Shown here in pieces: positions 35,159 to 43,076 of a stretch of 44,444 nucleotides of DNA. The stretch lies in IMG/VR virus record IMGVR_UViG_2531839661_000010. One strand, written 5' to 3'. How positions within the stretch are numbered: position 1 is the stretch's first letter; each line of letters opens with the position of its first letter. The notes under the pieces are model-generated. The model was given only the letters and a program-made list of their open reading frames with translations, ran no database searches and was not told the origin of the DNA. The DNA is from a virus. Taxonomy: Duplodnaviria; Heunggongvirae; Uroviricota; Caudoviricetes. The position numbers and the translations under genes are program-made.

Positions 35159-35268
35159 TATTAATTCCTATTGGTATTACAATGAATAAATAATAGCAAT
35201 ACGTATTAATCATAACAATAGCAAAACGTGTTTTGACCATCAATACGCAAGCGTATAAATTAAAACTT
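35159..35268. promoter_or_regulatory. Right operator/promoter region (OR, PRM/PR)
   Basis: Three dyads between divergent cI and cro: AATACGTATT (35198-35207), AAAACGTGTTTT (35223-35234), ATACGCAAGCGTAT (35243-35256); TATAAAT just upstream of the cI ATG. Confidence 0.6.
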
Positions 35269-35961
35269 ATGAAAAAAGAAACTCTTGCTGATCGCTTAAA
35301 CCTAGCGATGGAACAATCTGGAATGTCTCAAGGCGCTCTTGCAAAGGCGTCTGGCGTAGCTCAACCCACAATCTGGAGACTGACAAGCGGCAACGCGCGC
35401 GGCTCAACAAAAATTGTTGAAATAGCTAATGCATTGGGTGTTCGAACAGAGTGGCTCTCATCAGGCATAGGCCCGATGAGAAATGACGGTCAACAATTAG
35501 GGAAGCCTACTGCCAACCATCCCAAATACTTCAAGATTGACGTTCTTGATATAGAAGTGAGTGCCGGGCCGGGAGTCATCAACCGTGAGTTTGTAGAAGT
35601 TCTACGCTCGGTTGAGTACTCGTTTGACGATGCTCGTCACATGTTCGATGGTAGGAAGGCAGAAAATATCCGCATCATTAACGTACGCGGTGACAGCATG
35701 TCAGGAACGATTGAACCTGGTGATCTTCTATTCGTTGATATCACGGTTAAATCTTTCGACGGTGATGGTATCTATGCGTTTCTGTACGACGACACAGCCC
35801 ATGTAAAGCGCTTGCAAATGATGAAGGATAAGCTGCTGGTTATCTCTGATAACAAAAGCTACTCACCGTGGGACCCGATCGAGAAAGATGAGATGAACCG
35901 GGTATTTATCTTCGGGAAAGTTATTGGGAGCATGCCGCAGACGTATAGGAAGCATGGATAG
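35269..35961 (+). CDS. cI: CI repressor (HTH plus LexA-like autopeptidase domain)
   Basis: N-terminal HTH MSQGALAKASGVAQPTIWRL and C-terminal S24 peptidase motifs (GDSMSGTIEPGDLLFVD, HVKRL); ATG at 35269 (ORF-track start 35233 is TTG). Confidence 0.85.
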   Translation: MKKETLADRLNLAMEQSGMSQGALAKASGVAQPTIWRLTSGNARGSTKIVEIANALGVRTEWLSSGIGPMRNDGQQLGKPTANHPKYFKIDVLDIEVSAGPGVINREFVEVLRSVEYSFDDARHMFDGRKAENIRIINVRGDSMSGTIEPGDLLFVDITVKSFDGDGIYAFLYDDTAHVKRLQMMKDKLLVISDNKSYSPWDPIEKDEMNRVFIFGKVIGSMPQTYRKHG

Positions 35962-36041
35962 TACCAATTAAAAATTATCAACCGGGCATTGTGCTCATTC
36001 AGTAAAACAACTTAATTATTCATTTTAGAATGGAGAACTTA

Positions 36042-37103
36042 ATGGATACTTTAAAATATGAGAAATTCTCTGATTTTGATCACAATGACCCATTTTTTGA
36101 CTCTTTAAAAAAAGATTATAAAGAGTTTCCTCTTTGGTTAGAAAAAAAAGCCAGAGAAGGAGAATCAGCTTATGTGCTCTATGATGACAAGCATAAAATC
36201 GAAGGTTTTATGTATCTAAAAGAAAATGATGATGCAAATGACATTAATCCAGCGCTCCCACCAGGACGTCATCTAAAGATAGGAACATTCAAATTTGAAT
36301 CTAAAGGCACCCTTCGCGGACAACGATTTCTAAAAAAAGCGTTTGACCATGCATTTTCATCAAAATCTGATGATATTTATGTTACTGTTTTCGACAAACA
36401 CGTCCATCTAATAAAACTTTTCCAAACGTACGGATTTTACATTCATGGTGAAAAAGAAACACATAACGGGAAAGAGTTTGTATATGCGAGGTCTTTGCAT
36501 GAGCCTTATGGTGATATTTTATTAGATTACCCTCGAATAATGACATCAAGGGCCAACAAATATTTACTGGCGATTTATCCCGAATATCACACTAGACTAT
36601 TCCCTGATTCAAAACTTGTAAATGAATCACCAGATATTGTCAAAGATATATCCCATGCTAACAGCATTCATAAAATTTACATATGTGGAATGCGTTCTGT
36701 GATGGGAATGAAAAGAGGAGATATCATTGTCATCTATAGAACCGGAGACAAAAAAGGGCCAGCTCGCTATCGTTCTGTAGCCAGTACATTATGTGTAGTT
36801 GAGAGCGTAAAAAATATTTCTGAATTTTTAAGCGAAGATAGTTTTGTAGACTATTGTATTCGTTTTAGCGTATTTTCTGAAGATGAACTCAGAAAAATCT
36901 ATAAAGAACGTCGATACCCTTTCATTATAAGATTCACATACAATCTGTCTTTGCCAAAGAGACCCAATCGTGCTATTTTAATAGATCATGTGGGGCTAAA
37001 TGGTTCGCGTGCATTCCGATGGAGTCACTTTAAACTCACAAATGAGCAGTTCTTAAAGATCATCGAGTTAGGCAAGATAAATGAAAGTTTTATTATCCAT
37101 TAA
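36042..37103 (+). CDS. Two-domain protein: GNAT-like acetyltransferase-fold N-terminal half plus PUA/ASCH-like C-terminal half
   Basis: HLKIGTFKFESKGTLRGQRFLKKAFDHAF...IYVTVFDKHVHLIKLFQTYGFYIHGE resembles GNAT motifs A and B; C-terminal LLAIYPEYHTRLF...GMKRGDIIVIYRTG resembles a PUA-like barrel; GGAG six bases before ATG 36042; about 30 percent GC. Confidence 0.5.
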   Translation: MDTLKYEKFSDFDHNDPFFDSLKKDYKEFPLWLEKKAREGESAYVLYDDKHKIEGFMYLKENDDANDINPALPPGRHLKIGTFKFESKGTLRGQRFLKKAFDHAFSSKSDDIYVTVFDKHVHLIKLFQTYGFYIHGEKETHNGKEFVYARSLHEPYGDILLDYPRIMTSRANKYLLAIYPEYHTRLFPDSKLVNESPDIVKDISHANSIHKIYICGMRSVMGMKRGDIIVIYRTGDKKGPARYRSVASTLCVVESVKNISEFLSEDSFVDYCIRFSVFSEDELRKIYKERRYPFIIRFTYNLSLPKRPNRAILIDHVGLNGSRAFRWSHFKLTNEQFLKIIELGKINESFIIH

Positions 37104-37458
37104 GCCTGAGTTTGCAGAAAAAATATTGAACGGAACAAAGCGGTTCGAGTTTCGTAAAGGTATATTCAAAAATCCGCAAATTAGCACCGTTGTTATTTAT
37201 GCCACGATGCCATTAGGTAAAGTTGTTGGCCAATTCCGTATTGAATCAATACTAAGTGACGAACCGGAATCTCTTTGGAAAAAGACGGAAAAACACGCAG
37301 GTATTTCTAAGCAATTTTATGACTCATATTATTCAGGTAGAGAAAAGGCCTACGCAATAAAAATTGGTGAAGTGGAAAGATATAAAGAACCAATTCCTAT
37401 CTCTGCTCTAGGTAGTAATATTAAGCCACCACAATCATATCTTTACCTACCTGCGTAA
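37081..37458 (+). CDS. ASCH-domain protein
   Basis: N-terminus MKVLLSIKPEFAEKILNGTKRFEFRKG carries the GxKxxExR-type ASCH signature; 125 aa; start overlaps the upstream gene by 23 bp. Confidence 0.6.
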   Translation: MKVLLSIKPEFAEKILNGTKRFEFRKGIFKNPQISTVVIYATMPLGKVVGQFRIESILSDEPESLWKKTEKHAGISKQFYDSYYSGREKAYAIKIGEVERYKEPIPISALGSNIKPPQSYLYLPA

Positions 37459-37462
37459 GAAT

Positions 37463-37488
37463 CCCGGCCACCGTGCCGGGTTTTCTTT
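37463..37488 (+). terminator. Rho-independent terminator closing the immunity transcript
   Basis: Stem CCCGGC/GCCGGG with 6-nt loop followed by TTTTCTTTT, five bases after the ASCH gene stop. Confidence 0.5.
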
Positions 37489-37606
37489 TGTCCCCTCATC
37501 ACACAAACCGTTCGAAAAACCACCACATCCTCCCTTCAGTTATCGCTATGCGATGCAAGTCACAAAATTAATTCTTTTTGCTATCAAACAGTTAATATCA
37601 AAACAC

Positions 37607-37660
37607 ATCAATCAATAGCAATAAGTATTGATACAACCAATAGCAATAGCTATTATCACC
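37607..37660. promoter_or_regulatory. Left operator region (OL/PL)
   Basis: Dyads AATAAGTATT (37621-37630) and AATAGCTATT (37645-37654) share the AATA-NN-TATT pattern of the OR dyads. Confidence 0.5.
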
Positions 37661-37729
37661 ATGTCGCAACAACACAACGATACGGCAATCACCTGATTCA
37701 CCGTTGCGATGACCGCTTAGATCCGCAGC

Positions 37730-38140
37730 TTGAATTTCAGCAGGCTCCGGGGAGTGCGAGGGGTGAAGCGGACGCGTGAACGTCGGTGTGACCAGCTGAA
37801 ATCAACTCAACACCTCATACCTCAGTCGCTTCAACGAGGCGGCTTAGTTATGACAACCGGCGGCCATCCACCGCCTGAATACGCGCAGAAGTCTTTATAT
37901 GTTCAGCAGCCCAGCTTACGGGCAGGAGTTTTTATGGTGCATCAACATTATGGAACGCAGACCGTTAATCGAGGTGCGGTCATGCCAGGCATGCTGGTCA
38001 AACACAAAGATGGTACCTGGACTGCATCAGCTAATTTACGCGGACGGCTTTATCTGCATCGCGGCATCGAGCGCACTTATACCCGTGATTTGCTCGTGGA
38101 AGTTTTTCTCGACGGACGCGGTAACGGCCTGAATCACTAA
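37730..38140 (+). CDS. Hypothetical early-left protein in the N position
   Basis: First ORF after OL; N-terminal Arg-rich stretch [15 protein letters not shown] could be an N-like RNA-binding motif; start and true length uncertain. Confidence 0.3.
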
Positions 38141-38215
38141 CCCCCTTTCCTGTTTTCCTAATCAGCCTGGCATTTCGCGGGCGATATTTTCACAGCCATT
38201 TTCAGGAGGTCAGCC

Positions 38216-38512
38216 ATGAACGCTTATTACATTCAGGATCGTCTTGAGGCTCAGAGCTGGGCGCGTCACTACCAGCAGATCGCCCGTGAAGAGAAAGAGG
38301 CAGAACTGGCAGACGACATGGAAAAAGGCCTGCCCCAGCACCTGTTTGAATCGCTATGCATCGATCATTTGCAACGCCACGGGGCCAGCAAAAAAGCCAT
38401 TACCCGTGCGTTTGATGACGATGTTGAGTTTCAGGAGCGCATGGCAGAACACATCCAGTACATGGTTGAAACCATTGCTCACCACCAGGTTGATATTGAT
38501 TCAGAGGTATAA
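38216..38512 (+). CDS. gam: Gam, RecBCD inhibitor (short form)
   Basis: 98-aa protein [21 protein letters not shown]...[10 protein letters not shown] matches lambda Gam as recalled; AGGAGG before the ATG. Confidence 0.9.
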
Positions 38513-41624: not shown

Positions 41625-41946
41625 GGCCTGTCAGTTTCTCAAGATATCCAGACCTACCGCCACCAACTGGATACGAACAGGCCGCCTACAGGCAACACGC
41701 AAAGACCCCACTAAACCAAAATCTCCTTACCTCACAACGCGACAAGCCTGCATTGCGGCGCTTCAGTCTCCGCTGCATACTATCAAGGTGAGCGCGGGTG
41801 ATGGCATAACAGAGGAAAGAAAATGTCACTCTTCCGCAGAAGTGAAATATGGTACGCCAGTTTCACATTGCCGAACGGTAAAAGATTTAAACAGTCTCTT
41901 GGAACAAAGGACAAAAGGCAGGCGACAGAGCTCCATGACAAGCTAA
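41596..41946 (+). CDS. xis: Excisionase (AlpA-like HTH)
   Basis: [26 protein letters not shown] helix-turn-helix; AGAGG before ATG 41596; 3' end overlaps the integrase start by about 124 bp, so the true stop is uncertain. Confidence 0.5.
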
Positions 41947-42986
41947 AGGCTGAAGCATGGCGGGTCAGCAAACTTGGTGAAATACCTGATATGACGTTTG
42001 AGGAAGCGTGTGTCAGGTGGCTCGAAGAGAAAGCACATAAGAAATCACTGGACGATGACAAAAGCCGGATCGGATTCTGGCTTCAACATTTCGCAGGGAT
42101 GCAACTAAGAGACATCACTGAATCAAAAATTTATTCAGCGATGCAGAAAATGACAAACCGGCGTCATGAGGAAAACTGGAAACTCAGGGCAGAAGCATGC
42201 AGAAAAAAAGGGAAACCTGTTCCAGAATACACGCCAAAACCAGCGTCCGTTGCAACGAAGGCTACGCATCTTTCATTTATAAAGGCCCTGCTAAGAGCCG
42301 CAGAGCGTGAATGGAAAATGCTGGATAAGGCACCAATTATTAAAGTGCCTCAACCAAAGAATAAACGGATCCGCTGGCTGGAGCCCCATGAAGCACAAAG
42401 GCTGATTGATGAATGTCCGGAGCCATTAAAGTCTGTTGTTGAATTTGCACTGGCAACAGGCTTAAGACGCTCGAACATCATCAACCTTGAATGGCAACAA
42501 ATAGATATGCAGCGCCGGGTGGCATGGATAAACCCGGAAGAGAGTAAATCAAACCGCGCAATTGGCGTTGCGCTGAATGATACTGCATGTCGCGTATTGA
42601 AAAAACAAATCGGGAATCATCACCGTTGGGTATTTGTGTACAAGGAAAGCTGTACCAAACCAGACGGAACGAAAGCGCCAACAGTAAGGAAGATGCGGTA
42701 TGACGCAAACACAGCCTGGAAAGCGGCGCTGAGACGGGCTGGTATTGATGATTTCAGATTTCACGACTTGAGACACACCTGGGCAAGTTGGCTGGTTCAA
42801 GCCGGAGTCCCGTTGTCAGTGTTACAGGAAATGGGAGGTTGGGAGTCTATCGAAATGGTTCGTCGATATGCTCACCTTGCACCTAATCACCTTACCGAAC
42901 ACGCACGGCAAATAGACTCGATCCTGAACCCATCGGTCCCAAATTTGTCCCAGTCAAAAAATAAGGAAGGTACTAATGATGTGTAA
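41823..42986 (+). CDS. int: Tyrosine integrase (DLP12 IntD-like)
   Basis: [35 protein letters not shown]-terminus and C-terminal catalytic motifs ([15 protein letters not shown]...RRYAHL); ends 14 bp before the tRNA 3' end. Confidence 0.9.
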
Positions 42987-43000
42987 CTTATTGATTTAAA

Positions 43001-43076
43001 TGGTGCCGATAATAGGAGTCGAACCTACGACCTTCGCATTACGAATGCGCTGCTCTACCAACTGAGCTATATCGGC
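43001..43076 (-). tRNA. thrW: tRNA-Thr (anticodon CGT)
   Basis: Reverse complement GCCGATATAGCTCAGTTGGTAGAGCAGCGCATTCGTAATGCGAAGGTCGTAGGTTCGACTCCTATTATCGGCACCA folds as a 76-nt cloverleaf with CGT anticodon and CCA end. Confidence 0.9.

Follow-up and report, generated by a model that had tools for sequence, protein, structure and literature searches.

The gene pair gevT-gevA lies downstream of the cI-type repressor gene of a lambdoid prophage, in a stretch of 44,444 nucleotides (nt) from the virus record IMGVR_UViG_2531839661_000010 (this whole stretch is called the window below). With a probability of roughly 55% we read the pair as a GNAT-EVE/ASCH module (PDC-M11, GevTA) that forms a promoterless cassette with its own terminator and acts as a toxin-antitoxin defence expressed in the lysogen, in which GevT would be the toxic effector and GevA the neutraliser. 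The pair is not new, having been described, entered in a catalogue and given a name before.

gevT-gevA is a catalogued prophage gene pair

A search with the PADLOC hidden Markov models (HMMs) matched GevT to PDC-M11A (PDLC04419; E 2.1e-133) over residues 6-356, corresponding to positions 10-356 of the 357 in the profile, and GevA to PDC-M11B (PDLC04425; E 6.8e-52), with the A and B genes adjacent and overlapping; PDC systems in PADLOC are candidates, not validated systems. At the nucleotide level the cassette showed 99.8% identity to phages Lambda_4C10, 4A7, D2, 1W and 3W and 98.6% to Escherichia phage PhiR47_2 (PV340567.1). The GenBank products of PhiR47_2 are named "GevT toxin" and "GevA antitoxin". 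The PhiR phages make up the Laub laboratory's panel of temperate phages (cited as Brenes & Laub 2025, which is probably also where the two names come from). The names GevT and GevA were not found in the literature searched; in our own interpretation, Gev most likely stands for GNAT-EVE.

Operons of this architecture have been described before. (PIN)-GNAT-EVE fusions are almost always accompanied by an ASCH protein and often by an AAA_17 ATPase; alpha-proteobacteria have HTH-ASCH fusions, and the PIN-less GNAT-EVE form is common in beta- and gamma-proteobacterial prophages (Bell, Wolf, Koonin 2020). The same authors predicted a toxin-antitoxin function for these operons. The operons were reported earlier by Matelska et al. 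2017 and by Iyer et al. 2013. The cassette of the window has the traits by which Bell et al. 2020 defined the class, namely a GNAT-like domain with an EVE/PUA-like domain joined to its C-terminal side and a second PUA-like (ASCH) protein in the operon.

An earlier note, made from the letters of the window, had proposed a toxin-antitoxin or abortive-infection module and had not recognised the combination as a described defence system. The functional proposal agrees with the PADLOC assignment, the GenBank labels and the published predictions. The claim of novelty falls, since the architecture and its association with prophages are published, the pair is catalogued as PDC-M11 and the proteins are named in PhiR47_2. 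Overall, the note was largely right on the domains, and it is supported on the slot and the toxin-antitoxin or defence reading; it was wrong on novelty, and the writer activity that it inferred is unproven.

Anatomy and boundaries of the cassette

The open reading frame (ORF) list places the frame of gevT at 36030-37103 (357 aa) and that of gevA at 37081-37458 (125 aa), both on the + strand with an overlap of 23 nt, which probably couples their translation. We set the start of gevT at the ATG at 36042, because a GGAG motif stands at 36032-35 and the homologues have about 353 aa and share the N-terminus MD(T/S/N)L. The features of the region are:

35233-35961, + strand: cI-type repressor gene (Pfam Peptidase_S24 E 1.5e-18, HTH_3 E 1.5e-6)
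36032-36035, + strand: GGAG, Shine-Dalgarno sequence of gevT and 5' limit of the conserved cassette (read off the sequence; alignment of seven contexts)
36042-37103, + strand: gevT (PDC-M11A), 353 aa, GNAT-fold domain (about 1-155) and PUA-like domain of EVE/ASCH type (about 165-353)
37081-37103, + strand: overlap of the gevT stop and the gevA start, 23 nt (ORF list; the arrangement recurs in homologues)
37081-37458, + strand: gevA (PDC-M11B), ZmASCH-type protein of 125 aa with an ASCH domain
37463-37490, + strand: intrinsic terminator, part of the cassette (6-bp all-GC stem, then a T run; terminator scan)
37590-37660, + strand: OL/PL-like region (TTGATA-17-TATTAT among repeated CAATAGCAATA motifs)

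The gene upstream of gevT is labelled cI in near-identical phages too. In a windowed calculation the GC content was 0.33-0.38 across 35900-37250 versus 0.46-0.55 in cI and gam-bet-exo. The terminator consists of the hairpin CCCGGCC-ACCGT-GCCGGG at 37463-37480 followed by a T run, and the PL-like promoter lies at 37628-37656, amid the repeated CAATAGCAATA motifs, which by their position and the known layout of lambda are probably operators. The layout given in the earlier note, with two overlapping genes downstream of cI, a start at 36042, a low GC content and a terminator followed by OL, is thus borne out.

An alignment of cassettes from seven different prophage contexts showed that similarity begins only at the ribosome-binding site and stops after the terminator hairpin. 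The hairpin directly 3' of gevA is kept in all seven contexts, with compensatory changes in the stem. Because the similarity spans the ribosome-binding site to the conserved hairpin only, the mobile unit, as judged from these alignments, is a promoterless cassette with its own terminator. A promoter scan detected no more sites than in shuffled sequence and none between cI and gevT, and Rfam detected no RNA family within or near the cassette. Transcription of the cassette would depend on the repressor gene.

GevT carries a GNAT-fold and a PUA-like domain

GevT is a fusion of a GNAT-fold domain to a C-terminal PUA-like (EVE/ASCH) domain, so that the domain calls of the earlier note were largely right. 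A Foldseek search of the PDB with the whole protein returned a list filled by GNAT matches, which does not separate EVE from ASCH for the C-terminal part. Among 36 GevT homologues, 17 weakly matched Acetyltransf_10 (best E 2e-5) and 11 weakly touched Pfam EVE, and a long Rhizobium variant matched Acetyltransf_1 with 32 bits (cutoff 20.7). For the C-terminal domain the best structural match in the PDB is ZmASCH, an ASCH protein and not an EVE structure. This domain contains many invariant basic residues, and its Tyr232-Arg233 lies at the position of Tyr47 in ZmASCH.

A profile search with GevT matched PaiA (E 3e-5), and the best sequence matches, all weak, are PaiA and spermidine acetyltransferases. 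These matches would suit an ordinary moron outside defence, for instance an acetyltransferase for small molecules (polyamines or antibiotics) together with an accessory protein. We regard this as most improbable, however: a PUA-like domain is fused to the GNAT part, an ASCH partner is obligatory, variants with PIN and HTH domains exist, and the pair occurs in the defence-island and immunity-region contexts described below.

GevA is related to ZmASCH

By its sequence GevA is a canonical ASCH protein (PF04266), as the earlier note had said: it scores 35 bits against the Pfam model (cutoff 21.2) and contains the GxKxxExR motif, of which G18, K20, E23 and R25 are invariant among 30 homologues. Its closest solved relative, ZmASCH of Zymomonas, is matched over the full length (E 7e-18). 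The cleft residues Tyr47, Lys53 and Ser128 of ZmASCH are all found in GevA, where Tyr40 and Ser119 correspond to Tyr47 and Ser128. A search among plasmids for a pair to which ZmASCH might belong gave no match from Zymomonas.

GevA and the C-terminal domain of GevT have a common fold, with secondary-structure elements that correspond one to one and in the same order. As their sequence similarity is marginal, the relationship rests on structure: BLASTP gave "IVIYRT/VVIYAT" as the sole match, and hhalign a weak match of 40 columns (E 8e-4, probability 24%).

Two further observations concern GevA-like domains elsewhere. GevA matches the C-terminal domain of the NCBIfam model PRK12279 ('50S ribosomal protein L22/unknown domain fusion protein'; E 2.8e-15), which means that in some organisms GevA-like ASCH domains form fusions with a ribosomal protein; this hints at a ribosome or RNA association of such domains. 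On a Campylobacter helveticus plasmid (L096:3492-3863) a close GevA-like ASCH gene (PDC-M11B E 3e-48) stands downstream of an unrelated 597-aa AAA ATPase and without a GevT homologue, which shows that the ASCH gene can also occur by itself.

The pair is co-conserved in immunity regions and defence islands

We compared 88 related loci, of which 87 include the downstream DNA and are informative for pairing; the upstream gene was scored in 86. gevA lies directly 3' of gevT with an overlapping junction in every informative locus (87/87; protein identity 54-100%), and the overlapping arrangement recurs in the homologues from Vibrio, Klebsiella, Pseudomonas and Bosea and in all viral loci. Database searches yielded 1631 homologues for gevT and 2443 for gevA at E<=1e-5. 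These numbers, together with the adjacency in all informative loci, argue that both are real genes, beyond chance. Just upstream on the same strand, 53 of the 86 scored loci have a repressor gene, of several unrelated S24 and HTH-only types, and in P2-like prophages the pair lies between repressor and integrase. The co-occurrence in other prophage immunity regions, which the earlier note had put up for survey, is therefore confirmed. In E. coli the allele is present at an identity of at least 99% in 275 of 5426 complete genomes (~5%), where it stands once, on the chromosome.

Cargo is exchanged in the slot between cI and OL, as sibling phages carry other genes there: of PhiR5_1 and PhiR70_1, one has a HipA toxin/HipD antitoxin pair in its cI-to-kil slot and the other three unnamed genes. 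The comparison of this slot with that of rexAB as a site for cargo, made in the earlier note, thereby holds. In Vibrio cholerae (three loci, L002-L004) the pair is carried as cargo by a Tn7-like CRISPR-associated transposon (TniQ, Csy2, Csy3, Csy4) and sits between a SNIPE-domain gene and a 1269-aa SIR2_2 gene, in a compact defence island. Both this island and the HipA/HipD pair in the same slot of a sibling phage support a role in defence.

Bell et al. 2020 raised the possibility that GNAT-EVE proteins of phages serve in counter-defence, modifying nucleic acid or being toxic to the host and so shielding the phage from restriction. The prophage-borne form does lack the PIN domain, which is associated with host restriction-modification loci. 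However, the cassette belongs to a repressor operon expressed in the lysogen and not to the early lytic genes, the PIN-less pair is also found outside prophages, in the Vibrio defence island, and the pair is catalogued as a defence candidate. We therefore consider counter-defence improbable.

The published long form of the system was recovered independently on Rhizobium and Paracoccus plasmids, with an HTH-ASCH gene followed by a PIN+GNAT+PUA-like gene (512 aa, PDC-M11A E 4e-120) and an AAA_17 gene. In such alpha-proteobacterial variants the ASCH protein is fused to an Xre-type HTH, a typical antitoxin architecture, which supports GevA as the antitoxin. gevT has been inactivated four independent times (three nonsense mutations and one frameshift; L027, L058, L075, L089/L091) with gevA intact downstream; L090 is an intact allele of the Pseudomonas gevT copy. 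The reverse case, an inactivated gevA beside an intact gevT, was not seen among these loci.

These variants bear on a reading with reversed roles or two effectors, in which GevA would be a ssRNA (single-stranded RNA) ribonuclease of the ZmASCH type that kills, and GevT would sense or regulate. It draws on the Mg-dependent degradation of ssRNA by ZmASCH and on the conservation of Tyr47 and Ser128 as Tyr40 and Ser119 in GevA. The activity of ZmASCH is described as weak, however, GenBank names GevT as the toxin, the HTH-ASCH fusions resemble antitoxins, pseudogenes were found for gevT only, and a GevA-like gene stands alone on the Campylobacter plasmid. On balance there is little chance that this reading is correct.

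Two other genes were observed beside the pair. In 13 P2-like loci an unannotated protein of 355 aa with a C-terminal hydrophobic segment is encoded between the CI repressor and the GevT homologue (L005:6909-7976; also L006-L008, L060-L068, L075 and L087). It has no Pfam or PADLOC match and could be a further cargo gene of the immunity region. A small AAA_17 P-loop protein (169-189 aa; weak PADLOC 'VakA' matches) is encoded next to the pair in Vibrio, Pseudomonas, Rhizobium and Paracoccus:

L002:9444-9953: AAA_17 P-loop protein
L089:4431-4961: AAA_17 P-loop protein
L094:5433-6002: AAA_17 P-loop protein
L095:5436-6005: AAA_17 P-loop protein

The window has no AAA_17 gene, in agreement with the published status of this gene as a frequent but optional partner.

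Proposed function of GevT and GevA

In the toxin-antitoxin reading, gevT and gevA would be co-transcribed with cI from the maintenance promoter, and the lysogen would make both proteins continuously. GevT would be the toxic effector: its PUA-like domain would dock on nucleic acid via the conserved basic cleft that includes Tyr232-Arg233, and its target would most likely be an RNA of the translation apparatus, for example (aminoacyl-)tRNA. The GNAT-fold domain would transfer an acyl group to this target or inactivate it otherwise, translation would stop and infection by a superinfecting phage would be aborted. GevA would hold GevT in check until infection upsets the balance; it could do so by binding GevT or by occupying the same nucleic-acid site. 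We favour RNA as target because ZmASCH binds nucleic acids and cleaves ssRNA (an in vitro, Mg-dependent activity described as weak) and because a PIN RNase domain is present in the long variants.

Several points weigh against this reading. The toxicity of GevT, its neutralisation by GevA and the protection from phages rest on the GenBank product names, and co-transcription with cI is taken from the layout of the genes. The pseudogenes (four of gevT, none of gevA) do not serve as evidence of toxicity, the asymmetry being not significant given the 2.8:1 ratio of gene lengths (P ~0.3). GevT itself matches no Pfam family at E<=1, GNAT included. Its pyrophosphate-binding loop, T90-L-R92-G93-Q-R95-F, agrees with motif A (R/Q-x-x-G-x-G/A) in the central Gly alone; R92, G93 and R95 are invariant in the GevT homologues. 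A degeneration of motif A in such domains was noted before, with the remark that acetyltransferase activity is possibly absent (Matelska et al. 2017). Finally, the pocket residues K20, E23, R25, Y40 and S119 of GevA are invariant, which is unusual for a purely protein-binding antitoxin, and GevA is at least as conserved as GevT (mean identity 69% vs 65%; higher in 39 of 49 pairs).

Because motif A is non-canonical, a writer (acetyl-transfer) activity of GevT is unproven. Given the same deviation, the GNAT-like domain may, in a rather unlikely reading taken up below, use an unusual donor or substrate, such as aminoacyl-tRNA; some GNAT-fold transferases use aminoacyl-tRNA. The invariant pocket in turn hints that the pocket of GevA is needed for its function.

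These properties of GevA would suit an enzyme better than a passive binder and lead to a writer/eraser module similar to DarTG, in which GevT would acetylate a base or nucleoside of RNA or DNA and GevA would be an ASCH hydrolase that erases the mark, as YqfB does with N4-acetylcytidine (ac4C). YqfB demonstrates that the ASCH fold can hydrolyse amides, and nucleic-acid acetylation was proposed for this architecture by Iyer et al. 2013. The full set of YqfB residues, the Thr24-Lys21-Glu74 triad with Arg26, is not present in GevA, however, which has an invariant Glu in place of the nucleophile Thr24. An hhalign comparison of GevA with YqfB gave a probability of 1.5%, and a profile search with GevA did not recover YqfB even at E<=10. 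With the non-canonical motif A of GevT added, the write-and-erase ac4C idea of the earlier note found no specific support, and we hold a writer/eraser module to be an unlikely alternative. A broader version, in which GevA is an ASCH protein active on a ligand and reads or reverses what GevT produces, and GevT has an unusual donor or substrate, likewise seems rather unlikely. If true, the pair would be an RNA-directed writer/eraser or writer/decoy immune module, a mechanism new for phage defence.

As a discovery the toxin-antitoxin reading of GevTA adds little, since the architecture, the prophage association, the status as a defence candidate and the toxin/antitoxin annotation already exist. 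Its value is that of a target for mechanistic work: the cassette is present in about 5% of complete E. coli genomes, with related pairs across gamma- and alpha-proteobacteria, and lies in the immunity operon expressed in the lysogen. In it, a GNAT-fold domain whose cofactor use is uncertain occurs together with a nucleic-acid-reader fold in two copies, of which the toxin has one and the antitoxin the other. The substrate of GevT and the mode of neutralisation by GevA would reveal how PUA-like reader domains serve bacterial immunity.

The surrounding prophage

The window is a prophage. Its integrase gene (387 aa) at 41823-42986 adjoins a tRNA-Thr(CGU) on the opposite strand at 43001-43076, and this junction marks the prophage end and the attachment site at the threonine tRNA gene. 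Between the PL-like promoter and gam (37660-38216) there is no lambda N-like gene; the sole ORF (129-136 aa) is labelled Kil in a near-identical phage. Antitermination may follow another strategy in this lambdoid prophage.

Comparison with known systems

With rexA-rexB of lambda the cassette shares the slot downstream of cI and before OL/PL and the logic of exclusion cargo expressed in the lysogen. It has, however, no protein family in common with RexA and RexB: Pfam and PADLOC scans at E<=1 gave ASCH and PDC-M11 only.

The type II GNAT toxins AtaT, TacT, ItaT and KacT are alike in pairing a GNAT-fold toxin with a small neutralising protein and in a plausible RNA-linked target. AtaT, TacT and KacT, however, consist of a single-domain GNAT toxin with an upstream DNA-binding antitoxin of the RHH type, whereas GevT is a two-domain protein partnered by an ASCH protein that is encoded downstream and has no DNA-binding Pfam domain. 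Among solved ASCH proteins, YqfB (PDB 1te7/9kyf) differs from GevA in its Thr nucleophile, which GevA lacks, and the RNase activity of ZmASCH (PDB 5guq) is weak and was found in vitro only.

The published (PIN)-GNAT-EVE operons with ASCH and, in part, AAA_17 genes agree with the cassette in the GNAT-like/PUA-like fusion, the second ASCH gene and the location in gamma-proteobacterial prophages, and differ in that the cassette of the window has neither a PIN domain nor an AAA_17 gene. Likewise, the PDC-M11 HMMs match the two proteins along their entire length, and the two genes lie next to each other; PDC-M11 also takes in long forms that begin with a PIN domain, and ASCH partners fused to an HTH, whereas the window carries the short PIN-less form. 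Closest of all are GevT and GevA of PhiR47_2, which have the same gene order, the same overlap and the same place between cI and kil-gam-bet-exo (cI-GevT-GevA-kil-gam-bet-exo). The two phages differ in the N-terminal part of the neighbouring cI, whereas the sequence of the cassette is essentially the same.

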